In this document: piece after piece, positions 3,558 through 32,600 of the stretch
Layout: each line of letters begins with the position of its first letter
Position numbering within the stretch: the stretch's first letter is position 1
Assembly: GCA_003990765.1 (NCBI GenBank)
Contig: RBNJ01000233.1
Span: 1 to 35,903 of the forward strand
Reading direction: 5' to 3'
DNA: 35,903 nt
Source of the DNA: Jimgerdemannia flammicorona
Lineage: Eukaryota
Position numbers and translations under genes: made by a program
Notes under the pieces: generated by a model
Databases searched by the model: none
What the model saw: the letters and a program-made list of their open reading frames with translations, nothing else
What the model was told of the DNA's origin: nothing

Positions 3558-3567
3558 AAGAGGAAGA
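3558..3567 (+). promoter_or_regulatory. Polypurine tract of element A
   Basis: AAGAGGAAGA directly abuts the LTR start TGTAAT at 3568. Confidence 0.8.
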
Positions 3568-5101
3568 TGTAATAGTGACCCCAGAATGATAACATCAGCA
3601 CAGGAGACAGCCTTTCCTTACAAGCCACCAGATCAGAGCACAAGAAGATCATATGGCATACAAGATAAGCAATGATGACCAACTGTGAGTCATTGTGACC
3701 ACAGTACAAGCATTCTGAAGAATATAAAAGAAGGATCAAGGAACTGCAGTAGCAGCAACCACCAATCCCAAAATAACTCAAAGACTTACCACAAACGAAA
3801 TACCTACTGCCCGCCAAACCTCAAGGTCAAGGAACTATCAAGGTACCTTAGTTGAAGAAAGGATGTTCTAAGACATCAGAAGAGCCATGGAGACCCACTC
3901 AAGAAGGACTCCCAGTGTCAACCTGAGTACTGCAGATTCCTATCACTTTATCCTCTACTGCCATGAAATGGAAACAAGGATCACTATTGCTACCAAATGT
4001 CTCCAAATGTGGTAGGAGTATGAAATAGGAAACCTTCTCTGCTGGGAGTTCTCACAGGCCAGCACCCAAGAGCTACAAGATGCCACTTCCATGGATATAT
4101 ACGAAACAAGGACAGCTAAGAAGATCCATCAGATCTTCAGGCATGCACCATAGTCAATCCCCAACTTGGAGTATGTTAGAGTCTCAGACTTCAGAGATCT
4201 GTCATCCCGCCATATCAATGTACTAGAAGCCAGGGTGGCTACGGAAGCCCAGTCTACTATCACCCTCAATAGTGATGAAGTAGAAGACTTCTAGCACCCC
4301 ATTCTTCAGGACAACCCAGACCAATTTCTGTAAGGATTGATCTCAGTATTCTAGGGCCTAAGTATCTGGATTAGATCTCCCCAAGACCCCACATTTGTCC
4401 CCTATTTTGTAGAAGAGAACCTCATAGACTAGAGAGCTCCAGATCTTGTTCCTGATTTCCCCACTACAGCCGAATGTGATGACATCATCGGTGATGATGT
4501 CATCCCATGTGACATCGAAGCACATGAAATGCACAACCTGCATGACGAATTCATAGACCTCATCTCCTTCAATGATGATGATGATGAGGATGAAGCCCCC
4601 ATGGTCCTGAACTTTCTGCTCTAAGTTCTTTGTTATACTGGATAATGCCAGCACTGATATTCTCATGTATCACTGGATAATACCAACACTAGTATTCTGA
4701 GGTGATGCGAAATTGTTCCAGCACCAGTATTTTGATGTGACACTAAATAATGCCAGCATCCTGAACCTGTACAACCATCAGTGCCAACCCTGAAACTTAG
4801 TAGTTTTAGTTATTGGAATTTATATTTAGCTTTATATCTTAGCAACTATTGAATTATATTTTGTATAAATACTCCTCTCATTTCCTTTGAAATAAAGTCA
4901 GTTCTGGTTTCACTTATACACACTTCCTTGCAAGCAATCTAAGAGATAACAAGACAGTTAAAGATAAGAAGTTTGAGGACTATAAGACCTTGAGAAGATA
5001 CTCCAATAAGAACTTACTTACAACAAACTTGAGTTAGTCTAAGAGATACATTTTGAAGAGAATCTGACATATTTGAAGGACTCAGTGACCACTATGTGAC
5101 A
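3568..5101 (+). repeat. 3' LTR of element A (1534 bp), contains an ORF
   Basis: TG...CA ends. Matches both LTRs of B. TATAAATA at 4864-4871 and AATAAA at 4891-4896. Confidence 0.93.
3800..4624 (+). pseudogene. LTR-encoded ORF (~274 aa), decayed copy
   Basis: Colinear with intact ORF 24545..25357. Start ATG mutated to ATA, several TAG/TAA stops from TGG/CAG/CAA, same end (LNFLL*). Confidence 0.85.
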
Positions 5102-6631: not shown

Positions 6632-7059
6632 ACTTGACTATTTTAACCCCTTCTTTGAACTTCTATTTCTTTATAATAATATAATAATAAATATATATTA
6701 ATATATAGAATATAGTAACATCTTGACTTCAAAGTTATAGAGAGCTTTTTTTTTTAATTTTATTAAATTTATAATAAGTAATAGCTGTTTGAGATATTAT
6801 ATAAAGATTTTGATTGTTTTTTTTTTTAACTTTAATTTCTCTATAATAGTAGTATAAAAAAATTATATGATAATATAATTTAATCTAAAAACTATCTAAC
6901 TTTAAGGCTATAGAGAATTTTTTCCAAAATAATAATCAGTATTGGTATAATTCTATTAATAAGAATTCAGTAGTGACTAGTCTCTATTGATGAGAATTTA
7001 GTAGTAATAAGCTTCCATTACTAATCTTTTATCAATAAGCCTCAATTGACAGTTATACA

Positions 7060-7605: not shown

Positions 7606-8542
7606 TGTAATAAGTAGTAGAATTATACTACTAAAATTATAAATTAGCTATATATCATATCTAATGTACCATGTAACTAAGACTGCTTTACTGTACCAAT
7701 CTGTATAATTAGTCAGAAATATCAGAAACAGTATGTTTACCTATTTCTGAACCAGTACACCATACTGGCCCAGTATACTATACTAGTCTAGGAATATTGT
7801 ACTAGTCCAGTATACTGTACCATTCAGAAATACTTACTATAGATAGTTATCTATAATTAGCCATAAAGCAATCAGATAGTAACTACTACTATATAAAATA
7901 TCCTAGAGATAAGAGTAAATAAATCTCAGTCTGAAAAGTTAAAGTACAAATCAAAGAAGTTACTAAAAATTGTGAGCATTAGTTCTCTTTTCTCTACTCT
8001 AGTCCACTTTCTAATATAAAGCTTAGAGATTTGCTATCATGTTCAAGTGAAGAACTTCACTATCTTTTGAAGAGAAATTCTTAGTCTACTTATCAGATAA
8101 GCCTGAAGTCTCTCTTGCTACAAAGTCAGTCTTTTGATATAACTTCACAGTCTACTTTCTAATATAAAGCTTAGATATTTGCTGCTAAGTTTAAGTAAAG
8201 AACTTCACTATCTTTTGAAGAGAAATTCTTAGTCTACTTGCTAGATAAGCCTGAAGTCCCTCTTGCTACAAAGTTAGTCTTTTGATATAACTTCACAGTA
8301 AACTTATTTGTATAAATAAAGGTAGTCTTGATATAACTTTGCCAAGAAAAGAATTCAAGTTATTATTCAAGAAGTCTACCATTCTCAGAGAGCCTGTCTT
8401 AAAAAATCTTGTCATAAGCCAGTCTTCTAATACAACTTTATAGTAGAGCCAGTTCTTGATATAACTCTATGTAAATAAAGCCAGTCTTTGATATAACTTG
8501 CCAGAAATTCCCATATCATCTGAGTTATTTAAGTTATCTAAA
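7606..8542 (+). repeat. 5' LTR of element D, left part
   Basis: TGTAAT start preceded by GTAT. TATAAAA at 7892 and AATAAA at 7918 in the same context as the other LTRs. GAGTTAT-type repeats continue on the far side of H2. Confidence 0.75.
8001..8299. repeat. 148-bp tandem duplication within the D LTR
   Basis: AGTC(C/T)ACTTTCTAATATAAAGCTTAGA starts at 8001 and again at 8149. Shorter AGCCAGTCTT..GATATAACTT repeats continue to ~8500. Confidence 0.9.
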
Positions 8543-9676: not shown

Positions 9677-12152
9677 TGTGACATCTACAATTGACCCTGT
9701 CCAAATTCGGAGTACCCTGTGACCACAAGATCAGACGATATAATGGCGTGACAATCAAATAGACAGCCTGACCCATTAGGTGATCATCCCAAAAGAAGAC
9801 AAGAAGATCCGAGCCAAAATGAAGACCACGTTATTTAAGGAACCCTACTTCGCCTCAGGGATCGGCACCAAAGAACCAAGTACCCATCATACAATGCCTC
9901 CCACTCGCTGAACCAACCAGACCTCCCGCCGCTCTACCCCTCTGCCTGGCCCAAAGACCCTGATCTTTGAAGCTATCAAGAAGGCCATCTGGCGCCCAGA
10001 TACTTCCGAATACTTGAACTTCTACACTGAGGACCTTGGACACTTCATCAACTACTGGTATACAATGACCCAACAGCTCAAAGACACTACCGAATGAATG
10101 ACCCTCTGGCATGACTATGAAATCGGACACCGCCTTCACAATGAGACTCAAGAAGGCGACCAGGAAGACCTCATTGCCGAAATGTTAACCACCAGCTGGC
10201 TAATCAAGAGAGCCCTCTGTGTCCATCAAATCTTCTGCCATATTCCCTGGGCTATAGCACACTTGCAAGGAGTAACAGCTGGTAGTCTCTCCCGCCTATC
10301 AACCGAAGATGCTGACTGGATAGAATCCGAAGAAGCCAATGCTATTGGCAGCAACTGCATTGCCGTAGGAAGCCAACAAACCGAACCTACTCAACCAGGT
10401 TTCCACATCACCCCGCTCCGAGACAACCATCAAGGTCACCTAATGAGTCTTATGGAGATATTTGAAGGACCACCCATCACTATAGAGACACCCGTTGGAG
10501 CTACCCCAACCACCCACCACCCTGTCAGCTACAATTCACACCTCATCATTTGGGAACCAAATCAAGAAGAAGCCCAAGAAGTTCTTGTCTTTGAAGAGGA
10601 GGCCCAAGAACTCCAAGACCCTGCCCCTGAGGAAACCCCCTCTGACACTGAAACTGACGAGCCTTCAGAAGAAGAAGAGGATCAACAGAGAGTCTACCAG
10701 TCCTCTGTCCGCATTCAAGCTATTCAAGGGTTGGAGAATGTTGTTGAAGATGACTGGCCACTTTTCTACCCCCTCACCTCTTGGCCAGCGCTTCCCCCTT
10801 TTGAGGAGAGATATGATGAAGAAGAAATCACAACCCAGCAAGATTTGCCCACCACAGATGAATGGTACTATTCCCTCTAGAGTACCGTCTATCAGCCGTG
10901 AGAACCAAGCTTTTGTCAGCAAGTCCATTTTCAGCATTGCTACCCCCCACAACTGTTTCTGGCAACAATCAGCAATCATGTCAGCTCATCCGAATCCAGC
11001 GTTGCTACCCAGTACCACCATTTTCAGCATTTTGTCAGCAAGTCCATTTTCAGCATTGCTACCCTCTACAACCGCTTCTGGCAACAATCGCCGCATCCAT
11101 ATCCGTCCGTATCAGCAAGTCAGCAAGTCCGAATCCTGCGTTGCTACCCAGCACAACCGAATCCAGCATTGCTATCCAGTGCAACCGTTTCTGGCATCTT
11201 GTCAGCAAGTCAGCCCTTCACATCATGCAAGCCAATAGCATAGCGAAGTTTGCCACAACATAGTATACCTTAGCCTTAGTCGCGCCCCCTCATAGCTAGC
11301 AAACTTGTATAAATAACCCATATTCTTAGAGTGAATAAACCTCAGCCAGATAGTTTTACAGAGAAAACACACTGCCTCCAAGAGACTGGATAAATTCTGA
11401 GAACAAGATAACAACCTAGAGCAACGGATTGCTCGGAAGTTTGAGTTAAGGAATTTTCTCTTGCCACGGAAAGAAAATGTTACCCAACCGCCACCATTCG
11501 AGACCCAAGTTACCCAGCCAAGGATTCAAGACCACGGACCGCCCGAATTTCCAATTTTGCTGCCACAAAAAGGATTTGAGACCCAGAAACCCAAGTTACC
11601 CAGCCAAGGATTCAAGACATGACCGCCGCGCATTCGGACCTCCACGCATTCGACCGCCATTCGAGATTCAAGACCCAGAAAACCAAGGAAACCCAAGGAT
11701 ACCCAGCTAAAGGATACTAGACCGCCAAAGACCGACCCACTGCCAAAGAACCGAACAACCGCCAGGAACCTAACAAGTTAAGACAGACGAGCGAGCCGTC
11801 AACCTCCGCTTCTCCGATTCCCGACCCACTGCGCCACGAACCACATAAAGAGCAAGACCATCAAGACCGTTGCCGCATAAATTCAAGTTTGCCGCCAAGT
11901 TAATCGCCACCAGGAACGCCCTTTTCCACTGGATATTGAGCCATTGAACAACCGAACGACCTCATCATCGACGTCCTGAGCCACCATCGTTGAACAATCG
12001 AAGTCCCGCTATTATCGCACAAATCGAACGACCTGTCACGTGACCATCGACCCGCGAACATCACCAATGCACTCATATCCATTGCGCACTCCACCAAGTG
12101 TCACACATTGAGCTGTGCAGTCGAAGTTCATTATACATAACCGAACGTCACA
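9677..12152 (+). mobile_element. Solo LTR C (2476 bp) of a related but diverged LTR family, CpG-rich
   Basis: TGTGAC...GTCACA inverted termini with ATAT on both sides. TATAAATA at 11308 and AATAAA at 11334. No PBS, PPT or gag/pol flanking it, and the host intron resumes. Confidence 0.88.
9894..10880 (+). pseudogene. LTR-encoded ORF of solo LTR C (~328 aa, acidic C-terminus), homologous to the A/B LTR ORF
   Basis: ATG at 9894 is in frame with ORF 10098..10880, broken only by TGA at 9909 and 10095 (likely CGA>TGA). Shares D..HFI.Y, W..YEIG, HQIF.H.PW and F.GP.I motifs with 24545..25357. Confidence 0.85.
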
Positions 12153-14506: not shown

Positions 14507-15109
14507 AGTGAAGTTATTGATAGAGAGAGTATGCAAAATTTGCAGCCCTCTACTGGCAACAAGGGGTAAGTTCAAGCTATAAGTTGGTGTAGAAGTCCAG
14601 ATTAGAGAGAGCATGTAGAATTTGCAGCTCAATGATCTACTGTAAGAAGCAACTTCAAGCAGATCAGACTCTGGTATAGATTTGGGCCCCATAGGCACCC
14701 TGGTTCTGTACTGCAGCACCATATTAGTAGTACTCCAAAGTGGGGTCAAGGGACCAGTAGAGCTCAGCAAAAGTTCAAACTAGTGCTACAAAATAAGATT
14801 AGTGAGGTTGACAGAGAGAGTATGCAAAATTTACAGTCCTCTATCAGTAACAAGAGATAGCCCCAAGCTACAAGCTAGTGTAGGAGTCTGAATTAGAGGA
14901 AGTATACAGAATTTGTAGTCCAATGATCCACTGCAAGAAGCATCATCAAGCAGTCAGACTCCAATACAGATCAGACTTCAATACAGATTGAACTCTAGTA
15001 TAAATTCAGACCCCTGGCTCGGTGCTGTAGTACTGTACCAGCAGTGCTATAATATAGGGCTAAGAGACTAGTAGAGCTCAGCAAAAAGCTAAAAACTAAT
15101 GCTACAAAA
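14507..15109. repeat. ~295-bp diverged tandem duplication between transposase and cargo gene
   Basis: GAGAGAGTATGCAAAATTT...AGTAGAGCTCAGCAAAA...GCTACAAAA occurs twice, with units starting at 14507 and 14801. Confidence 0.85.
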
Positions 15110-15184: not shown

Positions 15185-16380
15185 CTACTCATCAGGCTCA
15201 GGCCTTGATGAGCTTATCATCTATTGTGAGTACAATAACTATAGTATCTGAGCTCTCCTCAAAGATAATAGTGTCATAGAGGTCATATGGTTAGAATAGG
15301 ACAGCTGTATTGGCCACAAACAGGACTCTAAAACTATAGACAAGGTTATATCAGATACTACCACTATTCTTCCAAGTTGGGCCCTTTCTTTCTAGAATAT
15401 AAAATATTATCAGAGTAATATTGCTGTCTGTATGTGTGAGTAGAGAAACATTATACCTAATATATTCTGATGTAAACCCTTGGCCCAGGATCTCATATTA
15501 CCAAACAGTGCTAGAGAATGTCTGCCTTTCATCTAGTCCTAAGAGCTCTGGCTTAGAAATCTACTAAAATAGACAGTATCTAGTTAATTCTTTTTGCATA
15601 CAGGGGAGTAGAAACCCTCAGGCTACACCAAAAAAAAGTCAAGCTCCTCACCTTATATGGTATACTAAATTGCATCAAGAATGTATATATAGTAATACTG
15701 AGAGTACTACTAAGCTAGTCTGCTGTTTGCTCCAGCAATCTGCTCAAAGAACTCCAGATCATGGCCACTATTGCCATATAGACCATGTTATGCTTATATG
15801 TAGCTTATTCTTTAATAGCACTTCTAAAAATCTGATAAGAGTACAGAATCCTATATATCTCTGGAAATTTAATAAGAATAGAATAGTAAAGAAAATCTCA
15901 AAAAAAAGAAAGACAAATATAGAGAATTTCAAAAAAAAACTCCAAAGAACTCACTCTTTACCAATATTACAGTATATTCAATTCCCATCCAAAGTTCCTC
16001 TCTCTGCTTTTTACACTCCCTCTTTTCTGCCAATCAGAATTTGATACAATTCTTATAAATCTTATTAATATAGCAATAAAGCTCATCAATATAGAGATTT
16101 CTTACCACTATCATAACAACCTCTCTATGTTTGTTAATAATGATATAGTTCTCTTCATTATTGAGTACTCTAGTATTCCAATGAATTCCTTGATTGAGAA
16201 TAATTGGCTCTAATTTGAATGTAGACCTCCAAGCCTTGATAGTAATACTAGTATTACTCATACTGAATAACTTGTCCTCAAACTTCTCTATTTGATCAGA
16301 TGCTAGATGTAGTTGAACTTAGATAACTTTGAATTCTCCTCTGTAGTAGAACTGAACCTTGATCTGAGTAGTGGGCCAAG
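15185..16380 (-). pseudogene. hAT cargo gene, putative TET/JBP-like 2OG-Fe(II) dioxygenase (decayed; further 5' exons probably extend to ~25750, split by element B)
   Basis: One minus frame reads GFTSEYIRYNVSLLTHTDSNITLIIFYIL..KNSGSI*YNLVYSFRVLFVANTAVLF*PYDLYDT. HxD is at 15426-15434. YDT (15270-15278) is two transitions from HGT. GTGAGT..TTTCCAG intron at 15954-15861; the upstream exon includes ORF 16034..16261. Confidence 0.55.
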
Positions 16381-16846
16381 TTAAGTATGTGGACAGATTA
16401 TGTGTGCATATTATATAGAAGTTTTTAGGAGAGAATATATAAAAATGAAGTTAAATAAAATACAGAGTAAGTATTTATAAAAAAGTATGAGAATGAATTA
16501 CATATAGATGAGTTGTATGCAGATAAGTTGTATGCAGATAAGTTGTATAAGATTGCTCATAAAGACTTACTTCTGATCCTTTTGAGATCTCTGCTATATG
16601 ATGTATTGACTCAATAGCTCAGTTACCAAAGGCATATCTTATAACATTCTCCAGCCTTTTTCCAGCCTTTCTTCATCTTGATCAGATATTGTGAATAAAG
16701 TTAGCAGATCTTGCTATAGAGCTGTGGACTCTGAGAAAAAGAGAAATAGTATAAAATAAACTTGGTCATACTATAGAAATTTAAATATAGTGGTAAAAAG
16801 GCAACCTATATCTACTATTGACTGCTCTAAAAAGACTACTACATAT

Positions 16847-18368
16847 TGTCATGTAGTGGTCACTGAGTCCTTCAAATATGCCAGATTCTCTTCAAGATGT
16901 ATCTCTTAGACTAACTCAAGTTTGTTATAAGCAAGTTCTTATTAGAGTGCCTTCCCAAGGTCTTATAGTCCTCAAAATTCTTATCTTTAACTGTCTTGTT
17001 ATCTCTTAGATTGCTCGCAAGGAAGTATATATAAGTGAAACCGGAACTGACTTTATTTCAAAGGAAATAAGAGGAGTATTTATATAAAATATAATTCAAT
17101 AGTTACTAAGATATAAAGCTAAATATAAATTCTAATAACTAAAACTACTAAGTTCCAGAGTCGGTACTGATGGTTATACAGGTTCAGGATGCTGGCATTA
17201 TTTAGTATTATATCAAAATGCCAGTGCTGGAACAATTTTGCATTACCTCAGAATACCAGTACTAGCATTATCCAGTATTACATAAGAATACTGGTGCTGG
17301 CATTATCTAGTATAATAAAGAACTTAGAGCAGAAAGTTCAGGATCATGGGGGCTTCATCATCATCATCACTGAAGAAGATGAGATCCATGAATTCGTCAT
17401 GTAGGTTATGCATTTCACATATGTCGCATAGGATGACATCATTGCCAATGACATCATTACATTTGGCTGTGGCAGGGAAATCAGGAACAAGATCTGGAGC
17501 TCTCCAGTCTATGAGATTCTCTTCTACAAAATAGGGGACAAATGTGGGGTCTTGGGGAGATCTAACCCGAATGCTTGGGCCCTAGAATACTGAGATCAAT
17601 CCTTGCAGAAATTGGTCTGGGTTGTTCTGAAGGATGGGGTATCAGAAGTCTTCTACTTGAGGGTGATAGTAGACTGGGCTTCTGTAGCCACCCTGGCTTC
17701 TAGTGCATTTATATAGTGGGATGACAGATCTCTGAAGTCTGAGACTCTAACATACTTCAAGTTGGGGATCAACCATAGTGCATGCCTGAAGATCTGATGG
17801 ATCTTCTTAGCTGTTCTTGTTTTGCATATATCCATGAGAGTGGCATCTTGTAGCTCTTGGGTGCTGGCCTGTGGAAACTCTCAGCAGAGGAGATTTCCTA
17901 TTTCATACTCCTGCTATATTTGGAGACATTCGATAGCAATGGTGATCCTTGTTTCCATTTCATGGCAGTAGAGGATAAAGTGATAGGAATCTGCAGTACC
18001 CAGGTTGACACTGAGAGTCCTTCTTGAGTGGGTCTCTATGGCTCTTCTGATGTCTTGGAACATCCTTTCTTCAACTGAGGTATCTTGATGGTTCCTTGAC
18101 CTTGAAGTTTGGCAGGCAGTAGGCATTTCATTTATAGTAAGTCTTTGAGCTATTTTGGGATTGGTGGTTCTTGTTGGTTGCTGCTACTGTGGTTCCTTGA
18201 TCCTTCTTTTATATTCTTCAGGATGCTTGTACTGTGGTCACAATGACTCACAGTTGGTTATCATTGCTCATCTCATATACTGTATGATCTTCTTGTGCTC
18301 CAATCTGGTGGCTTGCAAGGAAAGGCTGTCTCCTGTGCTGATGTCATCATTCTGGGGTCACTGTTACA
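16847..18368 (-). repeat. 3' LTR of element B (1522 bp)
   Basis: TGTAAC...ATGACA on the minus strand; direct repeat of 24069-25599. Confidence 0.95.
17324..18126 (-). pseudogene. LTR-encoded ORF, decayed copy in the B 3' LTR
   Basis: Fragments 17914..18126 and 17653..17835 match 24545..25357, with stops and a 10-bp deletion near 17658. Confidence 0.85.
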
Positions 18369-18378
18369 TCTTCCTCCT
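18369..18378 (-). promoter_or_regulatory. Polypurine tract of element B
   Basis: AGGAGGAAGA on the minus strand abuts the 3' LTR. Confidence 0.8.
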
Positions 18379-18681
18379 GAATAAGGATCTTCTCGAGTGT
18401 CCTTATTCATTGGTCCAGTCCTGAAAAATTTGCTGATCCCATAACCTCTGGCAAGGGGTTGAAAAGTGGTGTTTATGGGCTGGCATCTTCTCTTTATATT
18501 TTGGCATGATAGTGAAGTGTCACTCCCTTCATATAGAGCAAGGGCCTGATTTTGATCTTGACCAATCAGTTGACAGTTCAAACTCCTCTGACTTCAAAAG
18601 TCTCATGGATGAGTAGTTGCCAGTACCATATCCCTTAGAGAATGGTCCAGACAGATAGCCTGCTGGTCATGGGACATGCTG

Positions 18682-21600
18682 TTATGATTCATGGACTAGA
18701 ACCTCACAGGCAGTCATCACATTTTGCTTCTCTTGTATAGGTTTGTGGTACTTCTTGAGTCTGTTCCTGTGTACTGTAGTAGGCAGTATGGTCCCTGAGA
18801 TTTTTCTAAGCCAGAAGATAGTTCTCTTGATATCTTGCACATAGAAGGGTCCTTCCCATTTGGGCTCTAGTTTTTGCGACCATGAGGCTTCTACCATATT
18901 TCGATACAGTAGAACCTTTTCTCTGATTTGGATGGGTTCTAGGGTCTTGTGATTCTTTTCTGCAATCTTCCTTGTCAGTGCTTGTGACTTGGTAATGTAA
19001 TCTTCAGCCTTCTTCCTGTTTGGTGTAGTCTCCAGATTTCTGCATCAACCCATCTCCAAGTTAGGTCTAGATTTGTGACTGAGGTTCCATCAGAATCTTC
19101 TTCTCCAAAAGCAGCTCTCTTGGGGTAAAATGTGTGCTCTGTGACCATATATCTCTTAAGACAGAGAGGGCAGTTGGGAGATAGTTATCCCAATTCTCAT
19201 ATGTCTCTGAGATCTTTGCTAGGATGTTCTTGAGGGTCTTGTTGGTTCTCTCTATCTGTCCATTTCCTTGAGGGTGGTATGCAGTGGTCTTGATATGCTG
19301 GATCTTGTATTTCTGATACATTATCTCATGGAATCTATTGACAAATTCCATTCCACAGTCTGTTGTGATTTGCTTTGGTGTCTTGTAGTGGCAGATGATT
19401 TATCAGTGTAGGAAGTCAGCTATAGAGAGGGCATTGGCTTCTTGTAATACTCCTGCCTCTATCCATTTGGTAAAGAGGTCTACAATAACTATAATATAGC
19501 AGTTTCCTTATAGTATTACTGGTAGTGGTCCAATGATATCCATTGCGATGTGGTGAAAGGGGATAGGCTCAATTCTTGATGACCCAGGTGCCTGGTCTTG
19601 CTGATCTTATTTCTGTTTTTGGTACTTGTCACATCCTTTGACAAATTGGCACAGGTCTTCTTCCATCTTAGAGCACCACATAGTTCTTCTTGCCTTGTCA
19701 TATATATTGGTTCCTCCTAAGTGTTCTTGCTCATATACTTCCTTCATTACTTGATACTTCCTGTATCTGGGTATTACTAGCTTTCCTCCTTTTCTGAGTG
19801 TGGTATTGTCTAATTCAAACTGTTTCCAAGTCTGGTTGATGATAGTGATTGTCTAGGGTTCAAGGTGGTTGGGCATCTTCTACTGCCCAAGGTAGCTGAT
19901 TAATCTATAGTATAGCTCCTTATTCATGTTGAATAGTCTTGGTGGGGGTGTTTTGGGGTGTCTTTGAGAGTGTATTGGCATTAGTGTTGGTCTTTTCTAA
20001 GTGGTGCTTGACAGTACAGTCATACTCTTACAGCCTGTAGATCCATCTGGTATATATTCCTTTGGGGTTCAGAGTGTGGAATAGCCAGGCAAGAGCAGAA
20101 TGGTCTGTTTGAATGGTGAAGTATTTCCTGGCTAGGTAGTAGTGGAACTTATCTACTGCCCAAACTACTACTAAGCATTCAAGCTTGCATGACTCATAGT
20201 TCTGTTCTGCTCCATAGATACCTCAGCTTGCATAAGAGATGACATATTCATGTTCATCTTTCTTCTGAGCTAGGACTGCTCCAAGTCCTATAGCACTTGC
20301 ATCTGTCTGCAGGATGAATTCTAGGTTCCAGTCTGGTCTTCTGAGAATGGGTGCTTGGGTCAACCTGGTCTTGAGTTTATTGAAGGTTTCTTGGCACTCC
20401 TTGGTCCATTCAAATTTGGTCTCCTTCTTCAGTAGCTCATAGATAGGTGCTGCAATATTGGAGTATCCTTTGATGAATCTTCTGTAGTAGCTGGCCAGTC
20501 CAAGGAAGGCATGGACTTCTGTGGTTGTTCTGGGTCTCAGATAGACTGCAACAGCCTTGATCTTCATGAGGTCTGTGTGGATTCCAGTCTGGTTGATAAG
20601 GTGTCCTAGGTAGGCGATTTCCTGAGCTGTAAACTTGCATTTCTTGGGCTTGATGTAGAGGCCATACTCCTTGAGCCTCTTGAGGGCTAGCTGTATATGA
20701 TTGATATGTTCCCATGCAGTGTTGCTGAAGATAATCACATCATCAATATAGACAAAGAGCTATTTTCCAATCTTGTTGCTGAAGACTCTGTTCATTATTC
20801 ACTAGAAACTTGCTGGGGCATTGCACATTCCGAATGGCATTCACAGATAGATATAGGTGGCATCAGGTGTAATGAAGGCTGATTTCTCACTGGTATCTTG
20901 AGTGAGACCAATCTGATGGAAGCCTGAGAACAGATCCAAGGTGGTGTAGTATTTGGCTTCACTTCCAAGAGTGGTAAGGATTTCTTGAATATTCGGCAAG
21001 GGCTGCCTATCCTTCTTGGTGATGGCATTGAGTTTCCTGTAGTCATTGCAGAGTCTTGGTACAAACTCTCCAGGCTTGCTTCCTTTCTTCAGGACTAGGA
21101 CAATGGGTGAGGCCCAGGGGCTGATATGTAGCTTGCTTGATGATTCCAGCTTCTTCCATTTCCTTGAGTTCTGCTCACAGCCACTCTCTGTAGGCAGGTG
21201 GTATGGGTCTGGCATTCTGGTAGATGGGCTTGGTATCACCAGTGTCAACTTCATGGTAGTACTTGGGTTCTTAATTGTGGATATCTCTAAAGTTTGTAGC
21301 AAGTACTCCTTTGTTCTGGTGCAGGATCTTGAGAAGTTATTCCTCCAGGGGAAAGTTTTCTCCAATGATATATGTGTGCTTGTTCTGGTCCTTGTCTTTC
21401 TTGTGCTCAAGTTTGATAATCTTGGTGGCAGCATAGGCTCCTCTTCCAGTAGATCCAAAGCCTTGTTCTCCTCTCTTAGTCTTGATAAGTTTGATGGCTT
21501 CTATGATCTTAGGCTTCTTGATTTTATGGATCAGCATCTGGCTAATCCTGTCATGCTTCTTGACTTTGAAGGGGGTGGTGTGGTTGTGATTTCTGACTAT

Positions 21601-23948
21601 GAGGAAGATCTCGCCAGTGTAATCAGGGTCAATTACTCCTCCTTCAACTGAGATTTTGCTTTTGGCCAGACTGCTCCTGGTCTTGATAATTCTGGCATGG
21701 TTTTCTGATAACTTGACTCTAATTCTAGTGCCAAGTAGGGTGGTGGTCTATGGTTCAAGGGTAGCATCTTGAATGCTGGTAAGGTCCATTCCTATGGCTC
21801 CTTCAGTCATATATTCTGGGATCTTGGCTTCAGAGTGAAACTTCTTGACCTTGAGGGTGATGTCTGATTCTTGTTCCTCCTCATCATCACTGTCAGCTTG
21901 AAGCTCTGGGGGCTGGTCATCTTCTTCAGCTTTCCTTTTTGCTTTGGTAGCTTCTTGCTCATGTTTCTGTTGGTGGATTTTCCTAACTTCACTGATACAG
22001 GACCAGCAGTCATTCAGGTGTTCAGAGCAGTACATTCTAGTACCATGGGGGCATCTTTCTTGAGGGGCATAGCCATTGATGATCTTATTATACCACTGCT
22101 CATCTGTGAGCTTGGATGTCTTGTTCTTGTTTTTGTTCACTGAGTGCATGAAGACCTCTGCATTCTCTTCATCTCCTTCCTCCATATCTGGTAGGACTCC
22201 TTTGTAGACATTGATAGAGACTTATACCTTTCTTCCTCTGTAGTTGATCTGCATCTTCTGGGCATTGAGGTCAATGATGGCCTTGGCCTTGTAAAGCCAT
22301 TGGTTGCTAATGAGGATGTATAGTTGGTGGCGCTTATAACAATCACATCTACTGGGATGGTAGCTACTCCTATCTTGATGGGGACTTCTCAGATTTTGTC
22401 AAGGGGGGTAGCTCATGTACCATCTACTATGACATAGACCATCTTGGTAGACTCTTCAATGTCCCAACCTAGGCAGTCAATTGCCTTCTTGCTCATGAGG
22501 TATCCTCCAGCACTAGTATCAATGATGGTATCAAAGATACAATCTTCAATCTGATATGGGGTATAGGCTGATGTCTTGCACTGGTCTTCAGATTCTTCAC
22601 CTGAGTTCTCAGATTCTTCCTGTACATTGTGAGCTTCTACAATCTTATATTCTTGATTCTTAGTGGTAGTTGCAAGTCCTACTCTCAACTGCTATCTGAA
22701 GGCAGGGACTTCAGCTAGCTGTCCAAAGGTAGCATTGACCTTCTGTTTCTTGAGATCCTTGTAGATATCATACTGGTGGATCTTGGTCTTGCACAGCTTC
22801 TGTTCCTTCTTGCTTTTGCTTTCTCCTGAGACTGGGGTAGTATCTTCAATAATTTGGCAGGCAGCTTCATCTAACTCCATGTCTTGATCAATCTCCTCAG
22901 GTTGAGTCTTGCTTTGAATAATGATGGCTGGGGTCTTCTTTGGTCTTCCAACTGGCTTGCTGTTGCTCTTCTTGTCATAGGGCTTGGACTGGGTTCTGGT
23001 ACCTTCAGTAGCAGGGTAGAATTCGAGCTCCTTGTAGTATTCTTCATCATCAGTGTCACCAATCTCCTCGATGACTACTGCATTGATTTGTTCTCTGGTT
23101 CTGCTTGCATTGCTTGGTTGGGCTTTGCATCTTGTTTCAGTCATGCAACTCTTTGTATAGTGGCCTTCTTCTCCACATCTAAAGCATGTGATATTGCATT
23201 CTTCTGTAGCAGCTACAAATCTCTGTACTGGTCTCCTGTTGATACTTCAGACTTCTCTAACAACATCACCAAGGTGTGCAGTCATTTCAGCAAACTGCTT
23301 GGCAAGTTCCTCCACTGGGTCAGCTTTGGCTATCTTGGGGGTAGGTGGGATTGATTGTCTGTTTATGACTGTGGTAGGTAAGATACTAGTTGGCTTTGAT
23401 GGCTCTATCTTGATGCTAGTTATTTTCTCCATTGAGTATTCAGCAAGATGTCTGGCAGTCCAATATCTCTGTACAAAGACCACTTTCTGATCAAGGGTCA
23501 GTGCAGCTGGGGTAGACCAGATTGCTAGAGCAATTTCAGGGTGAACTCCTTTGAGGAAGGTTGAATCTGCTATTTGTTCCTTGAGGTGGTCATCATAGCC
23601 AGCCAAGACAATCTGGTGGCAGATTCGAGTATAGAATGAGTTTGGATCTTCACTAAGTCCCTGGCAGATAGTATTGAGTTGATCCTTGAGAGCTTGCTTG
23701 ATCTCTTCGGTATAATATGTTGTTATGAGGAAGACCTTTATGTTGGCAAGTTTGGCTGCACTAGCATCAGCAATGGTGGCTGTATTGAACTTGTCTCTGG
23801 CAGGTCCTCTGAGGCTGACTGGTAGAAAGGCCAATTGAGCATCCACACCAAGGGTTTGTACAGCGGCGAATTGTTCAAAGTCTTCAATAAAGGTCAGAAT
23901 TGACTCTTCAGTAGTATATCCATAGAATGTGGGGGGATACATTTCCAT
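18682..23948 (-). pseudogene. gag-pol: gag-pol polyprotein of element B, probably ancestrally a single ORF of ~1750 aa
   Basis: Gag PPTFYG..EESILTFIEDF; zinc knuckle CFRCGEEGHYTKSC (23145-23186); protease IIDTSAG (~22515); dUTPase ~21440-21840; RT YIDD (20739-20750); RNase H QTDASAIGLGAVL; integrase YHPQGNGQIER and KLEPKWEGPF. Broken by transition stops and small frameshifts. Confidence 0.94.
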
Positions 23949-24048
23949 CTAGTCTTGAATTCTTGCAGGGGTAACTCTTGTTGTCAGGGTAGTTGTTGTG
24001 GGGGTTGTTTATTTTTCAGCTTGAAAGTGAGGGATTCATCTTGAATCA

Positions 24049-24065
24049 CCAGCCAATGGGCACCA
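24049..24065 (-). promoter_or_regulatory. Primer binding site of element B
   Basis: TGGTGCCCATTGGCTGG starts 3 nt after the 5' LTR. The first 9 nt resemble the tRNA-Lys-type TGGCGCCCA; tRNA identity is uncertain. Confidence 0.65.
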
Positions 24066-24068
24066 AGT

Positions 24069-25599
24069 TGTCACATAGTAGTTTCTGAGTCCTTCAAATA
24101 TGCCAGATTCTCTTTAAGATATATCTCTTAGACTAACTCAAGTTTGTTATAAGCAAGTTCTTATTGGAGTGCCTTCCCAAGGTCTTATAGTCCTCAAACT
24201 TCTTATCTTTAACTGTCTTGTTATCTCTTAGATTGCTTACAAGGAAGTGTGTGTAAGTGAAACTGGAACTGACTTTATTTTAAAGGAAATAAGAAGAGTA
24301 TTTATACAAAATATAATTCAATGGTTGCTAAGATATAAAGCTAAATATAAATTCTAATAACTAAAACTACTAAGTTCCAGAGTCGGTACTGATGGTTGTA
24401 CAGGTTCAGGATGCTGGTATTATTTAGTATCACATCAAAATACCAGTGCTAGAACAATTTCACATCACCTAGAATACCAGTACTGGCATTATCCAGTGTT
24501 ACATGAGAATACCAGTGCTGGTATTATCCAGTGTAATAAAGAACTTAGAGCAGAAAGTTCAGGATTATGGGAGCTTCATCATCATCATCACTGAAGGAGA
24601 TGAGATCTGCAAATTTATCATATAGGTCATGCATTTCATATATATCACATGGGATGACATTATTGCCAATGGTGTCATCACATTTGGCTGTGGTGGGGAA
24701 ATCGGGAACAAGATCTGGAGCTCTCCAGTCTATGAGGTTCTCTTCTACAAAATAGGGGACAAATGTGGGGTCTTGGGGAGATCTAACCTGGATACTTGGG
24801 CCCTGGAATACTGAGATCAATCCTTGCAGGAATTGGTCTGGGTTGTTCTGAAAGATGGAGTGCCAGAAGTCTTCTACTTCATCACTATTGAGGGTAATAG
24901 TGGACTGGGCTTCTGTAGCCACCCTGGCTTCTAGTGCATTGATACAGCAGGATGACAGGTCTCTGAAGTCTGAGACTCTAATATACTCCAAGTTGGGGAT
25001 TGACCATGGTGCATGCCTGAAGATCTGATGGATCTTCTTAGCTGTCCTCATTTTGTATATATCTATGGGAGTGGCATCTTGTAGCTCTTGGGTGCTGGCC
25101 TGTAAGAACTCCCAGCAGAGGAGGTTTCCTATTTCATACTCCTGCCACATTTGGAGGCATTCAGTAGCAATGGTGATCCTTGTTTCCATTTCACAGTAGT
25201 AGAGGATAAAGTGATAGGGATCTGCAATACCCAGATTGACACTGGGAGTCCTTCTTGAGTGGGTCTCCATGGCTCTTCTGATGTCTTGGAACATCCTTTC
25301 TTCAACCAAGGTGCCTTGATAGTTCCTTGACCTTGAGGTTTGGCAGGCAGCAGGCATTTCATTTATGGTAAGTCTTTGAGCTATTTTGGGATTGGTGGTT
25401 CTTGTTGGTTGCTGCTACTGTGGTTCCTTGATCCTTCTTTTATATTCTTCAGGATGCTTGTACTGTGGTCACAATGACTCACAGTTGGTCATCATTGCTC
25501 ATCTCATATGCTATATGATCTTCTTGTGCTCTGATCTAGTGGCTTGCAAGGAAAGGCTGTCTCCTGTGCTGATGTCATCATTCTGGGGTCACCATTACA
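24069..25599 (-). repeat. 5' LTR of element B (1531 bp)
   Basis: TGTAAT...GTGACA on the minus strand. TATA at 24306-24299 and AATAAA at 24279-24274. Confidence 0.95.
24545..25357 (-). CDS. Intact 270-aa LTR-encoded protein of unknown function (acidic C-terminus)
   Basis: Open from ATG to TAA, wholly inside the LTR and on the element sense strand. A homolog is present in solo LTR C. Confidence 0.82.
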   Translation of the reverse strand: MPAACQTSRSRNYQGTLVEERMFQDIRRAMETHSRRTPSVNLGIADPYHFILYYCEMETRITIATECLQMWQEYEIGNLLCWEFLQASTQELQDATPIDIYKMRTAKKIHQIFRHAPWSIPNLEYIRVSDFRDLSSCCINALEARVATEAQSTITLNSDEVEDFWHSIFQNNPDQFLQGLISVFQGPSIQVRSPQDPTFVPYFVEENLIDWRAPDLVPDFPTTAKCDDTIGNNVIPCDIYEMHDLYDKFADLISFSDDDDEAPIILNFLL

Positions 25600-26151
25600 A
25601 TATATAGCTATGAGATCTATAAATTCTAAGATTTGAAGGATTACTGTAAGTTATTACTAGAATTCTCCCTCATTCTTATCATCACTATTACTATCATTAT
25701 TACTATCACTACTACTACTTTAGCTCTCAATAAGCAACTTGTGTACTATCTATATGAGAAAAAATTTAATGTTGTCAGCAGAGAGTACTTTCTATCTTGA
25801 ATATTCCCTCTTTTAATAATTATTAGGTATAAAAATGAGTAGACTAATATACAATTAAGAGCTGCTATTTATTTGTTCATAATATAACTAGAGAAATAAA
25901 AAAGAGTATCAGAGAATAAAGAAAGAAAAATATTACTAAAGTTAAAGAAAGAGTAATATCACCAAAGATAAAGAAAGGGTAATATTACTAAGATAAAGAA
26001 AGGGTAATGTCATCAAAAATTTCAAGTAATCTAGATCAACCTGGATTAATCCAGATCAGATCATGAGACTAATCCAAGTTAATTCAAATTCATCATATAA
26101 TAAATCTGAATCAAATCTCATTCAGATAAATTGCATCTATTTAGAATACTA

Positions 26152-26699: not shown

Positions 26700-29600
26700 T
26701 AGTCAAACTGGATATATTTAATATAATACTAATCTCTACTATTACAGAAAAACTAATTATTACCAGTATTTAGATAAGAAGAGAAGTAATCACTTCAAAA
26801 CTTGTCAACTATCTATTATCAGAAAGATCTCAACCAGAAGCCAATATAGTACAGAACTCTCAGCCAGTATCAACAGACTTCCTATTAGACCAATCAGATT
26901 ACACAGATAGCCCTGCTACTAACTTTGATCAAATTTCTCAAAAACTAGAAGATCTCATTACATAAGCCCAACTTCTTACAGGAGATCTATCAATTTCACT
27001 CATTGAACCTCTACTACTAGCTATTATAGAACAAAAAGACCAAGGAGTAGCTCCTTTAAGGATACCTAGATCTATTCTACCTTACTCAAGATTCTAATAC
27101 CATCTTCAGAATACCCAAGTATCCTGAACTCCAGTAATAATTTAGAGAGCAAATCAGAATTAGAATTGAAATCAGAATTAGTACCAGAATCAGAACCAGA
27201 GTCAGAAGCAATAATGATGAAATAGCCACCCTATTGCCAATCTTTACAAGATACTCAAAAGAAGACCCAAGGGAATTCCTTGATATAATTAAAGAAATTA
27301 CAGCTCTGAAGAATTTCTCTTCTAAAAGGAAAGTTACTATCATAAGATCCAACTCAGAGAACCAGCTAAAGGAATTTTCACTCAAGTAAGAAATGATGTA
27401 TATTCAGACCTTAGAGCAGTCATCAATGCAGCAAGAAGATGGCTGGCAGAGTATAAAGCCATGATCTATTGACTTATTGAGAAGTATACAGAAAATGAGA
27501 CCTACTATAAGACTCAAAAATCTATTATAGGAATGAAGATAAATCTTGGAGAATTGTCCAGAGCATTCTTTACAAAAATTCAAAAAAGAATACATACCAT
27601 CAGGTTCAATGCTACAAATTAAGACATTATAGGTCCAATGATCTTTATGAATGGGATTCTACTGAACATTGCTCAGTATATCTATATCTTAGGCATCAAG
27701 AGGTCTGAAGAGTAAGTAGATATAGCTCAAGAATTTTTTGATATCAGATAAAGAACTATCTGGAGTGACTATAATAAGAAAGATAACAAGAAAGATATTC
27801 TGATCAAAGTCCTGTAAAAACTTCTTTAAGAATAACAGAAAAAAAATTTGAGACCTCAGTTCTAAGTTGGACCAATTGGTGGGACAGATTGAAAAACTCA
27901 CCACATACAAAAATCAGAGCTACCCACAAGATAACAGAGGGTATATACTACAAAGGAACCAAGGTTATCCACTCAGAGATAACAGGAGCTACTAGCAAGA
28001 GGAAAAAAGATACTCTGTCTGGGATAGAGCCCAAGTTCAGTGCTTTTACTATGGATAATTTGAATATTATACTACTGAATATAATAATAAAAGAAGTGAC
28101 TAAAGGGACTCAGAACTACTAAATTAAAGAAATGAAACTTAGTACAAGAAGACTGAAGCCCATCCTGTCAAAGACATTGAAGAAGAAAGTAACAGTAAAG
28201 ACAATAGTGATCTAGATCTATATCTAGTCAAAATTATTACCAGAAAGATAGTTTACCTAGTAGAGAAAAGGAAGAGATCCATAGGAAGACCATCCAGAAA
28301 TACCAATAGAAGAATCTAAGAGAAAGACAAAAGACATAAAGAGAAGTAAGTAGAAATACCTCCCTAGTCTCCCTCACCTTTTATTTCTGAAACAAATGAA
28401 TTATCTCTAGAAGATGAAGAAATGGAGCAAAAAGAATAGGAACCTATTTCCCCAAAGCTCCAAAAAAAATGTATATCCTGAAGACTATGCCCAGAGATAT
28501 TTACAATAAAGTCTGGCAAAATATTCAAGAAGCTAAGATGAAAGTTCCTCTCCTGCAGTTCCTACAACTGATGCCAGCTGGAGTCTAAAACAAACTGTTG
28601 AGAACTATTAGATCTAGTACTGACCAAGTCCCAATTCCACAGCAAGAATCAGCTTCTACTCCCATTCAAGCTACAGAGAGATATATCAGCATCTATCTAT
28701 ATAGAGACATTGGAGGACAAAAGACAAAAATCCTCATAGATACAGGAGCAGCTATCTGTATTATTGCCAAATAATTTCTAGACACCCTCCAATGGCCCAT
28801 TGATAGACCATATAACCTCAATATCACAGTAGCAGATAGAGCCCAAACTCAACCTTTTAGAGAAGTATGAAATATTACTATCTCTCTGGAACACATTCAG
28901 TTCTCTATCTTAAAAGCTGTTATCACCAAAGCTGTTACTTATGACATAATCCTTGACACTAACTAGATGAAGGAAATGAATATAATTATTGATATCAGTC
29001 AATAAGTACTCAAGTTTGATTACTGAGATAAGAAGTACTAAGTTAAGATATCCAGCTATGAGTAATCAAAGAAGAAGAAGAAGATCACTATCTAAGAAGA
29101 ATATACTAGTAGTGAAGAATCTACCATAGAAGAGGAAGAAGAATCTAAAGATAGAAATGATCCCAGACTCAGTCTATGAATCAATCTAGTAGATGACAGG
29201 CCAGAGGATAATGTGTAGACTAGGAACACTATCTCCATCACTAATAGAGCTATTTCAGAACAGATCAAAGGATGTCCCATCTGTCTCAAAAGATACAAGT
29301 GTCCTAAACACTCATTCAAGATTATTGGAATAAGAAATTTACCTGGCACAGTCTGCCCTAAGTGCAGAAAAAGAATGAAGAAGTATAGATATATTCCAAA
29401 GATACCCATAATTGAAGCTACAGAAGTATAAGTAATTTGGGGTCAAGAATCATCTGAGAAAGAAGAAACCTCTGAGCAAGAGATTCCTGAACAAGAAGTA
29501 CCTAAGGAGAAAGAGCCCTCTAAACTCATTCTCTAGAATAACTCTTACTGAATACCACTAGAAGATAATGATCCCTGGAATGTCAAAGAAGGACTCAGTA

Positions 29601-32600
29601 TAATCTCCATTATTCTAAAGTAAGAAATACATCAAGAAAGAGCCTTTCAGCTAAGAAGATGTCTATATCAAATAACTTTCCACTCTCTCTAAGACTACTG
29701 CTATCAGTACCACCTACTGGATCAATAAGAAAAACAGAGACCTCAAAGGTCAGAACTCCTGACTACAATTATATAGTTAATCATTTTCCAGAAAGTCACT
29801 ACAAGGTTACAAAGCCAAGCTAGAGGACAAGGTCTCTTCACCTGAACAGAAGTATACCCCTTGGCCACCCTTCTCTCAATTTATGATCAAGATAGATACT
29901 AATTCCCAAGATAATAAAAGATCAATAATCAAGAATAGCATTTTTGAGCAATGGGATATTATAATTATGGAAGGCACCCAGACTACTGAGACTACAGATA
30001 CCAGAAGATTCACCTCAGCCAGGATGTTATAGTCTATACTCTAAAGAGAGAAGACAACAGAACTCAGATTTGAAAAAGCTAGACCAAGAAACCAGGAAGA
30101 AGGGCCCTCAAGATCTATAATTTGAGAGAAGATATTCTAGCTCTCATCAGATATATAACTCACTAAGGATAGATAGAAGATGCCACCAACTTCATAAAGG
30201 CCCTAGACTTTATAAGAAAAAGAAGAATCAACTATCTTTGAGACCCTTCTACTGAAGCCAGATGGCTGCACCTCAATCTCAGAGTCTGGAGGCTTCCTGC
30301 CAGTAGAGCTTCAGCTCAAAGAGAGTCTGAACTTAGCAAAGATATTGCTCAGTATGTCCTACTACATCCTAAGGCCAAACCTCCAACTATAGCTCACTAA
30401 GATATAGGATATGATCTCTATAGTCTGGAGGATAAACTCATCAGATCTGGAAGAACATGGTGTTCAGAACAGGACTAGTTATGCAACCACCTAAAGGAAC
30501 TTACATCCAACTAATCTCAAGGTCTGGACTTGCCAGACAAGGAGTAACCATAGAAAGAGGAACTATAGACTCAGGATATACAGGTGAAATCAAGATCATT
30601 TTACATAACAGTAGTACAGAATGGTATCAAATTCTCAGAGGACAGAAGACTGCTCAAGCAGTCTTCATGAAAGTCAAGACCCCTCAATTATAAGAAGTCT
30701 CCAAACTAACTGAAAGAATAAGGCAGGCTGAAGGATTTGGAAGTTTAGATAAGAAAAAGTCTATCTCCTCTATGTCAACTATCTCAAGAAGGATGTTCCA
30801 CAGCAAGTGTATTACCAATCAGTCAAATTGTATAAGAATCTTATCCTGGAGCCAGAAGAGCAAATTACCTTTACCATCTGACCCCAGAAATCTCTTTTTT
30901 GAACCCAATGAAGACATCCTGAACCTGAATATTAAGGGATATATATTCTCTGATAAGATGAATCCTGTGCACTCCTGAGTAACTAACCAGAGCTAGAAAA
31001 GTATCAGAACTATCATAGGACATCTAGTATCTTTCCTCAACTGAATCCACAGAGAAGTCTATAAGCTAAACCTATTGGAAAATGGAAAAAGGTCTCAGAA
31101 AAAAGGAAAGACCCCTCTGTAACTCAGGAGACAGTAAAGTCTTTCACCAATATTGAAGAAGAATTGATACTCCAGTAATGACAATAACTAGTAGAACTCA
31201 ACAAATATCAAGATATCTTTATTACTGATTATGGCAACCTACTATATAACTTATTATATTACTATAGTATAAATATAGAAAATGCAACACCTATCTGGCA
31301 GAAACCCTATAGAATACCCCATTACCTAAAGATATTTGAAAAGGAATACATTTAAGAACTCTTAGACAATAGAGTCATCTGACTCTCTATCAGCCCTTGG
31401 GCTAGTCCCATACTTATTATACCAAAGAAAGGAAGATGAAGACTCTATATAGACTACAGGAAACTCAATTCAGTCACTAAGAAGAATGCTTATCTTTTGC
31501 CCAGAATCAATGATCTCCTAGATCAGTTACAAGATACCAGATACTTCAGCAATATAGACATTTTTGCAGAATTCTATGAGATCTCCATGAATCTCAAGGA
31601 TATTCAGAAAACAGCCTTCTTTGCTCTAGAAAAACTGTCTAAATACCTCTGAATACCCTTTAGACTTTACAATATACCCCCTATCTTTCAGAGAATGATG
31701 AACTTAGTCTATGGCCTATAGATCCACCACTCTCTAATTATATACATGGATGATTCTAATATCTATTCAGCAAATTTTGAAAAACATCTGCACTATCTAG
31801 AAGAATTCTTCAAGCTCACCCATAAGAACTACCTGAGGCTCAATGTTAAGAAATGCTACTTTGGAAAACTGAAACTTGAATTTTTTAGATTCATAGTTTT
31901 GAATGAAGAAATTCATATAGACCTAAAGAAAACTGAGAAGATTAACAATTGGCCAGTACCCAAGACCCTAAAGAAAATACTATTATTTCTAATATTAGTA
32001 TCTTACTACAGAAGGTTCATCAAGAACTTTACCCAAATTACTATCTCAATCTGAATCTTTATCAAGAAGAGAGTACTATATAAATAGACAGAATCACAAG
32101 TACTAGCCTTCAAGGAACTCAAACACTATATGACTATAGTACTAATCCTTATATATTCCAATCTATAGAAATTATTCATCTTATATATAGTTACTTCCAA
32201 AGATGACCTTAGAGCAGTTTTAGCCTAGAAGAATCTGATCAATAATACTATATAATAGCTTATACAAGCTGAGCTACCAATCAGCAGCAGATCAACTATG
32301 GCAACATCAAATTGAAATATCTTGCAGTTATATAGGCAGTTACTCTGTTCAAACATTATCTTATCAGAAAAAGATTCACCCTAATAACTGACCATACTGT
32401 CTTCAAATAACTATTCAACCACAAGAAACCCATTGAAATCCTGGTCTGCTAAATTCTTATCCTTTAGAATTATAAGATCACCATTATTCATAAAGTAGAA
32501 AAAGCTCACAACAATATTGATGTACTTTCCTATCAATCTTAATAACCAGAAGAAGGGTATACTGAGGAACTATACTCTAAAGAAAACTTCTCTGACTATT

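Follow-up and report, generated by a model that had tools for sequence, protein, structure and literature searches.

The LTR Open Reading Frame and Its Carrier

The stretch of DNA analyzed here, referred to as the window, comprises 35,903 nt of Jimgerdemannia flammicorona (assembly GCA_003990765.1, contig RBNJ01000233.1, positions 1-35,903, forward strand). On its minus strand, at 24545..25357, an uninterrupted frame of 270 codons runs from ATG to TAA, lying wholly inside a verified 1.53-kb long terminal repeat (LTR) of a Ty3/gypsy retrotransposon. Searches with tblastn and with a family profile in all six frames revealed homologous stretches at 3800-4624 (+), 17324-18126 (-), and ~9894-10880 (+), and no further relative of this open reading frame (ORF) in the window beyond these four stretches. 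The label B denotes the ORF and LTR family with three 1.53-kb LTRs, and C denotes the probable solo LTR at 9677-12152, while copy 1 is the element cut by the window start (plus strand) and copy 2 is the full element at 16846-25599 (minus strand). A preliminary description of this DNA, made from the sequence alone, had proposed a conserved, selected gene inside retrotransposon LTRs. This view is upheld by the likeness of B and C, the seat of the ORF in the LTR, its sense orientation, and the accompanying TATAAAT motif, though the open frame is not found in every copy.

The three B stretches have the same orientation as gag-pol and occupy the same LTR positions (~233/243 to 1055); the ORF in the 5' LTR of copy 2 spans LTR positions 243-1055. 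A Met-Pro start ~220-240 nt into the LTR is conserved, with the ATG of the 329-codon C frame (9894..10880, +) falling at LTR position 218. Every A/B-family LTR had been thought to carry an open frame of ~270 amino acids, but only one of the four window copies, 24545-25357, is open. The stretch in the 3' LTR of copy 2 (17324..18126, -) contains at least two stops and one frameshift, and that in the 3' LTR of copy 1 (3800..4624, +) starts with ATA rather than ATG and is interrupted in frame by seven stops, each replacing a Gln or Trp codon. As for the ~328-residue ORF ascribed to LTR C, a homologue is indeed in place, and the database protein P0135, 79% identical to the window C copy, is an intact relative of 325 amino acids, but the window copy itself is interrupted by two in-frame TGA codons (9909-9911 and 10095-10097). 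Both of these positions are Arg in P0135, indicating that the C-family ORF is intact elsewhere, at the length first estimated. An alternative genetic code was ruled out as the source of the stops, as all three kinds of stop replace Gln, Trp, and Arg codons through C>T or G>A changes.

The LTR ends and target duplication, the primer-binding site and polypurine tract, and the order of the genes together identify the carrier as a Ty3/gypsy (Metaviridae) LTR retrotransposon. The terminal repeats of copy 2, the 3' LTR at 16846..18368 (-) and the 5' LTR at 24068..25599 (-), are 1.53 kb long and 91.3% identical by self-BLAST. B LTRs start with TGTAAT and end with TGTGACA (TG..CA), and the 5' LTR, delimited by self-BLAST and by these sequence ends, is also marked by its junction in soil metagenome contigs, where the internal end passes into the LTR start at one and the same base (4/4 runs compared). 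A primer-binding-site-like TGGTGCCC... lies 3 nt past the end of the 5' LTR (~24065), and polypurine tracts abut both 3' LTR starts, namely AGGAGGAAGA in copy 2 (18369-18378) and AGAGGAAGA in copy 1, the 3' LTR of which (3568..5101, +) was likewise delimited by self-BLAST and belongs to an element that runs off the window start. In addition, the sequences flanking copy 2 are continuous in a paralogue at 5103-6631, where the two matches overlap by 4 bp, corresponding to an empty site and a 4-bp target duplication.

Between the LTRs, the internal region of copy 2 (18369..24067, -) reads from the primer-binding site through gag with a CCHC knuckle, protease, dUTPase, reverse transcriptase (RT), RNase H, and integrase to the polypurine tract. 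The Pfam order along 23948->18400 is zf-CCHC, dUTPase, RVT_1, RT_RNaseH_2/RT_RNaseH, Integrase_H2C2, and rve, and the protease was seen by eye only, as a D[TS]xxG-like stretch. This region is riddled with stops, and the ~700 nt from the integrase core match to the 3' LTR hold no extra gene. The nearest named RT relatives are insect elements, with ~40-56% identity over short stretches. LTR C (9677..12152, +), a block of GC content 0.49 amid a background of 0.25-0.30, is probably a solo LTR, with TGTGAC...GTCACA ends and ATAT flanks in a TA-rich stretch. Lying wholly inside the LTR, the gene is therefore present twice per full element and once per solo LTR.

Relatives of the LTR ORF

Significance of homology was judged by comparing Smith-Waterman scores with those of 500 shuffles. 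The B and C proteins score 172 against 35.6 +/- 5.6 in shuffles (z=24), and a BLASTP comparison of B with an intact C-family relative gives E=1e-17, confirming the alignment at the protein level that had previously been made by eye. Still higher z-scores were obtained with L001, a relative locus seen at the DNA level in a metagenome scan (B-L001, 78; L001-C, 39). When 1.84 billion representative proteins were searched exhaustively with a profile, seven relatives and nothing else emerged, and word-indexed searches and a cluster look-up brought the database relatives to 15 altogether, all from metagenome sources.

These relatives form at least five lineages. The B-like lineage (P0002-P0007 and P0133) is 63-86% identical to B, P0009 and P0134 are of the L001 type, P0010 stands by itself, the C-like lineage contains P0008, P0011, P0135, and P0136, and P0012 is distant. 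Full-length open frames from the shared Met-Pro are found in window B (270 amino acids), P0003 (271), the L001 ORF (291), P0010 (342), and P0135 (325). L001 was the one locus found in the metagenome DNA scan for relatives, and scans of viral and prokaryote genomes yielded no relatives of the LTR ORF.

No relative outside this small family was found among the 1.84 billion representative proteins, and thus no host parent gene is visible. In Pfam, no family scored above the cut-off; the matches at E<=1, all below the cut-off, were ATG5_HBR (E=0.078, taken as noise), Thioredoxin_3, and Troponin. No match at E<=10 was found among PDB sequences. In the ESM Atlas, B had no usable match, and the L001 ORF matched only unnamed clusters (0.89-0.92); a eukaryotic one among these (Mucoromycota) gives a lead rather than evidence. 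Derivation of the ORF from gag was ruled out, as hhalign gave a probability of 0.2% for the family profile against the gag of the element, and no gag family was found in Pfam. Furthermore, no match to an already described Ty3 accessory ORF emerged from Pfam, PDB, the fold searches, or the literature, the last with incomplete coverage.

Signs of Selection Between Lineages and Decay Within Copies

The comparisons of selection at the DNA level take in B, C, and L001, the closer relatives (63-86% amino acid identity) being represented by protein only. Among the B, C, and L001 pairs, the proportion of synonymous differences is saturated (pS 0.74-0.77, Nei-Gojobori) and that of non-synonymous differences is 0.43-0.54 (pN). 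Non-synonymous change thus lies well below synonymous change, as the earlier proposal of a selected protein had implied, though with such saturation omega is not expressible as a number. In DNA-guided alignments, identity at codon positions 1, 2, and 3 amounts to 0.50/0.64/0.40 in the B-L001 pair (chi-square p=2.5e-4) and to 0.49/0.54/0.38 in the C-L001 pair (p=0.02), the order being 2>1>3 in both. The sense frame of B-L001 scores 460, compared to at most 223 for any other frame pair. BLASTN alignments (E<=0.01) among the B LTR, L001, and C are limited to fragments of the ORF and to 29 nt surrounding the ATG, and on this comparison conservation within the fast-evolving LTR is confined to the ORF. 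In combination, the saturated pS with lower pN, the codon order, and the restriction of alignment to the ORF suggest purifying selection on a protein between lineages.

In 300 simulations of neutral drift, continued until third positions had diverged as far as observed, scores averaged 35 (maximum 68), ~12 stops arose per simulation, and none of the 300 stayed open. This result bears on the reading of the ORF as a relic without present function that persists in young copies, derived from a fragment of a captured host gene or from an old ORF3 taken up into the LTR. Such a relic would accord with the breakage of three of the four window copies, the neutral evolution of the open copy, and the lack of a known domain. 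It is nevertheless very improbable, given that lineages saturated at synonymous sites still share 24-39% of residues (aligned codons, NG86) and 26-41% with B (protein alignment), that the start and motifs are shared and five lineages have full-length open frames, that the simulated frames all closed, and that the 1.84 billion representative proteins show no host parent gene.

Within the window, the copies are dead and decaying, and one is still open by luck. The B LTRs carry 57, 65, and 69 private changes, almost all of them transitions. A hand estimate from 16 Gln codons (CAA/CAG) and 5 Trp codons gives ~2.5-3 stops expected per copy and a chance of ~0.06-0.08 for an open copy. In a comparison with soil contigs, 7 of the 40 variant places shown (of 1424) fall inside the ORF, all private to the window copy. 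Conservation between active lineages, together with decay in dead copies, is the pattern of a transposon gene and argues against a host gene.

The decay of the B LTRs has further characteristics. Only 1-2 transversions per copy are present among the private changes, CpG is almost exhausted (7 remain), and CpA>TpA is favored over change at CpC and CpT, with the same transition excess in soil contigs. A cytosine-methylation process or one resembling repeat-induced point mutation could be the cause of this bias. The two LTRs of copy 2 are no closer to each other than to the copy 1 LTR. With such star-like divergence, LTR dating would make the insertion as old as the split between copies.

Signals in the LTR and Models of Expression

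The layout of expression, including promoters and RNA ends, is read here from motifs. TATA-type heptamers are rare in these LTRs. TATAAAA occurs at LTR position 156 in 3/3 B LTRs, 87 nt upstream of the ATG (25438..25444, - in the 5' LTR of copy 2), and is a candidate promoter of the ORF. C has TATTTAA at LTR position 156, 62 nt before its ATG, and the sole TATA[AT]A[AT] of L001 lies 80 nt before the ATG. Moreover, the 29 nt around the ATG are the sole non-coding stretch conserved between B and L001. Downstream of the ORF, TATAAAT at LTR position 1294 (24300..24306, -) is a candidate promoter of genomic RNA and is followed after 27 nt by the sole AATAAA of the LTR (24274..24279, -), a candidate poly(A) signal. 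C likewise has TATAAAT (11308) and a sole AATAAA (11334), 26 nt apart, downstream of its ORF (11308..11339, +). The spacing of 26-27 nt is thus kept in B and C, with one AATAAA per LTR. The ORF had previously been placed upstream of a TATA box, which agrees with the downstream TATAAAT, but the second TATA-like box, upstream of the ORF, had been missed.

A pair of 18-bp palindromes (AATACCAGCACTGGTATT-like), 35 bp apart, follows the ORF stop directly on its 3' side (24473..24525). They are also found in the other B LTRs (17252-17304 and 4644-4696), and the window contains 9 matches against 0.02 expected, all in B LTRs. These palindromes could bind a dimeric factor or fold into RNA hairpins, and they are candidate response elements. 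Soil contigs vary in length at this stretch (joints 24379-24483). LTR C contains 28-nt tandem repeats between the ORF and TATAAAT (11112-11187) and GC-rich repeats of 10-18 nt past AATAAA (11621-11776), and the LTR continues for ~800 nt after AATAAA in C versus ~200 nt in B.

By motif position, the ORF lies inside the LTR and upstream of TATAAAT and AATAAA, a candidate seat in the unique 3' region (U3). In the layout favored here, the TATA-like box 62-87 nt before the ATG would be the ORF's own promoter, and the ORF mRNA would end at the single AATAAA of the LTR, giving a transcript of ~1.1 kb. Each LTR, solo LTRs included, would then be complete in itself, with promoter, ORF, and poly(A) signal. 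The downstream TATAAAT would start the genomic RNA, leaving the ORF in a long U3 next to a very short repeat region (R), as in MMTV, the mouse mammary tumor virus.

The same motifs can be read differently if the LTR has no promoter but the upstream box. This would place the ORF within a very long R/U5 (U5 being the unique 5' region) and make it the leading cistron both of the genomic RNA and of LTR-only RNAs that are polyadenylated prematurely; the downstream TATAAAT..AATAAA would be a bipartite poly(A) signal instead of a promoter. This arrangement would accord with the TATA-like box that B, C, and L001 have 62-87 nt ahead of the ATG, with the conserved 29 nt around the ATG, and with the single AATAAA per LTR, and in fungi and plants a poly(A) signal usually includes UA-rich elements upstream of AAUAAA. 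The arrangement requires, however, that R be ~1.1 kb long and that the poly(A) signal of the 5' LTR be read through. The fixed distance of 26-27 nt between TATAAAT and AATAAA, kept in two families with unalignable flanks, is that of a classic TATA box and start site beside a U3-borne poly(A) signal, and the repeats and palindromes between the ORF and TATAAAT occupy the usual seat of U3 enhancers. A leader position of the ORF is therefore considered rather unlikely.

Alternatively, the ORF could lie in U3 and be translated, as in MMTV, only from the 3' end of the element RNA via a spliced subgenomic mRNA, the upstream box being incidental. A long U3 with a sense ORF, a TATA box, and a short gap to AATAAA does match the layout of MMTV sag. 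An incidental box is difficult to reconcile with a TATA-like sequence at the same distance in three lineages whose surrounding DNA is unalignable, and no splice acceptor or donor was evident by eye upstream of the ATG, a systematic search not having been made. Expression by splicing is thus improbable, and the favored layout remains the one in which the ORF has a promoter of its own.

Predicted Features of the Product

Two AlphaFold models from different lineages agree on the build of the protein, with helices at residues ~18-150 and more to ~185, a small beta unit, and a disordered tail. The predicted local distance difference test (pLDDT) is 70-93 in the core of the models and below 50 in the tail. 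Tails have an isoelectric point (pI) of 4.05 and contain 14-32 Asp and Glu residues versus 2-4 Lys and Arg residues (14/2 to 32/3). Within them are hydrophobic motifs, including FADLISFSDDDD, DLISFxD, FEDL, FEDLIIFEDL, DLINFS/DLITFS, LNFLL, and DDWPLFYPL. The product would thus be a soluble, two-part protein with an alpha-helical core of ~130-190 residues and an acidic disordered tail. A membrane or env-like protein was ruled out, as there is no hydrophobic segment; the maximum 19-residue Kyte-Doolittle hydropathy is 0.64-0.74 in 4/4 proteins.

Foldseek searches of PDB and BFVD with these middling-confidence models returned nothing at E<=0.001, and the best VIA-align scores (Z 4.1 and 4.0) are below the chance level for helical models. 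Weak ParB/KorB/SopB-type rows (Z 2.6-3.8) obtained with one model were not at the top for the second model, and nothing was drawn from them. In the models, a helical core with a disordered acidic tail bearing Phe, Leu, and Trp motifs resembles the architecture of regulators with acidic activation domains, and this is a resemblance only. The tail may recruit a host factor, as in an adaptor or co-activator.

Weighing the Evidence

Taken jointly, the observations are probably best explained by a genuine retrotransposon protein gene inside the LTR, with its own promoter and poly(A) signal and a trans-acting product. A build like that of an adaptor or acidic activator, together with a seat in the LTR, favors a trans-acting factor by analogy with retroviral regulators in or at U3. 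The protein would act in trans for the element, most likely by raising LTR transcription, or alternatively through evasion of host control.

Several points weigh against this reading. With regard to the gene, three of the four window copies are broken, and the open copy is not protected. Its 39 unique ORF changes (13/9/17 by codon position) are as many as in its broken siblings, and post-insertion selection on it is thus not supported. The B-C codon-position test is flat (p=0.72), the DNA alignment being poor at that distance, and the saturation of dS means that omega is not measurable. Protein databases hold only frames called open and are biased to intact copies. The LTR context is proven for B only and is probable for C, and the context of L001, P0010, and P0135 forms no part of the proof. 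With regard to expression, promoter use, transcript ends, and translation are all read from motifs only. With regard to function, confidence in the models is middling (mean pLDDT 62-63), the acidic core (pI 4.9-6.4) lends no support to direct DNA binding, and the short tail motifs fit a clathrin box or an Atg8-binding motif equally well.

Comparison With Accessory Genes of Other Retroelements

Among retroviral genes, sag of MMTV resembles the LTR ORF in layout, being a sense ORF of ~300 codons wholly within a long (>1.2 kb) LTR, upstream of a TATA box, and present in both LTRs as well as in solo LTRs. The product of each is, additionally, an accessory one that is dispensable for reverse transcription itself. 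Sag, however, is a type II membrane glycoprotein, whereas the LTR protein has no hydrophobic segment and no Pfam family at the cut-off, and it does not belong to the sag family. In further contrast to MMTV, the carrier of the LTR ORF is a Ty3/gypsy element without env, and the TATA-like box directly upstream suggests a separate promoter.

The nef gene of human and simian immunodeficiency viruses and the bel/tas/bet genes of foamy viruses also encode accessory or regulatory proteins at the 3' end that reach U3. Foamy Tas, a trans-activator with an acidic activation domain that is made from an internal promoter, is the closest functional analogy. Unlike the LTR ORF, which is entirely inside the LTR, these genes only overlap U3, and no likeness to them in sequence or fold was found with Pfam, PDB, Foldseek, or VIA-align, the fold comparisons using models of middling confidence.

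Extra ORFs of LTR retrotransposons have been described in the internal region, as the aORFs of plant elements (PMC7264820), ORF0 of rice Retrosat2 (PMC3485330), and the ORF3s of bdelloid rotifer elements (PMC5408684). Such ORFs are, like the LTR ORF, element-specific, kept within families, without homologues outside them, and of no known role. They differ in their place, which is either before gag or else between pol and the 3' LTR, and in showing no sequence likeness, and the parts of these papers that were consulted describe no extra ORF inside the LTR for any of the three groups (PMC7264820; PMC3485330; PMC5408684). The carrier also has a counterpart in the bdelloid elements Juno, Vesta, and TelKA and in basidiomycete elements, in which dUTPase is likewise reported to lie between protease and RT (PMC5408684). 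The extra genes of those elements are ORF3s before the 3' LTR (PMC5408684); the carrier has no such gene.

A search of the full-text literature found no Ty3/gypsy gene inside an LTR, "LTR ORF" referring there to MMTV or to ORFs of LTR elements; coverage was incomplete, and this is not proof of absence. The comparison suggests that an LTR-borne accessory gene, otherwise known mainly from a few retroviruses, is here found in a Ty3/gypsy retrotransposon.

Other Features of the Window

The dUTPase between protease and RT is seen at 3-1037 (+) and 21337-21747 (-) of the window (Pfam E=1e-27 and 1e-19). In retrotransposons it is described as rare and as known from bdelloid rotifer and basidiomycete elements (PMC5408684). 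Copy 2 is inserted in another repeat (15797-16846 plus 25600-26151), the uninterrupted paralogue of which, 5103-6631, is ~80% identical and adjoins copy 1. Another, unrelated decayed retroelement without the LTR ORF lies in the right third of the window, where it has left an RT fragment (RVT_1, E=0.0013) and other ORF remnants (31746-32054, +; 29092-29409, -). In the AT-rich DNA between elements, there are tandem duplications at 8001-8316 (148-nt unit, 91%) and 14517-14961 (~146-nt units, 291 nt apart, 78%).

The family of the element at 18369-25599 is represented in soil metagenome runs of four studies by 490-6801 contigs per run at >=80% likeness, and in the best soil run the depth of the LTR is ~2-3x that of the internal part. 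Given this abundance in four studies, the host is a widespread soil eukaryote.

Implications

The LTRs of retrotransposons are commonly treated as non-coding control regions and are masked, dated, and classified accordingly. A selected protein gene in a Ty3/gypsy LTR would extend to retrotransposons a retroviral trick like that of MMTV sag, would add a protein family without a known fold match to the small set of transposon accessory genes, and would mean that solo LTRs can be coding. It also offers a handle on how an element regulates itself or deals with host control.

As a tentative extension of these findings, each LTR may be an autonomous gene, made up of a basal promoter, an ORF of 270-340 codons, and a poly(A) signal, for a trans-acting factor that switches on or shields the main LTR promoter of the family, with the solo LTRs that recombination leaves behind continuing to supply it. 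If this were true, the factor would be a "public good", the dose of which grows with the history of the family through hundreds of solo LTRs, and copy number would be coupled to activity in a manner without described precedent among LTR retrotransposons.

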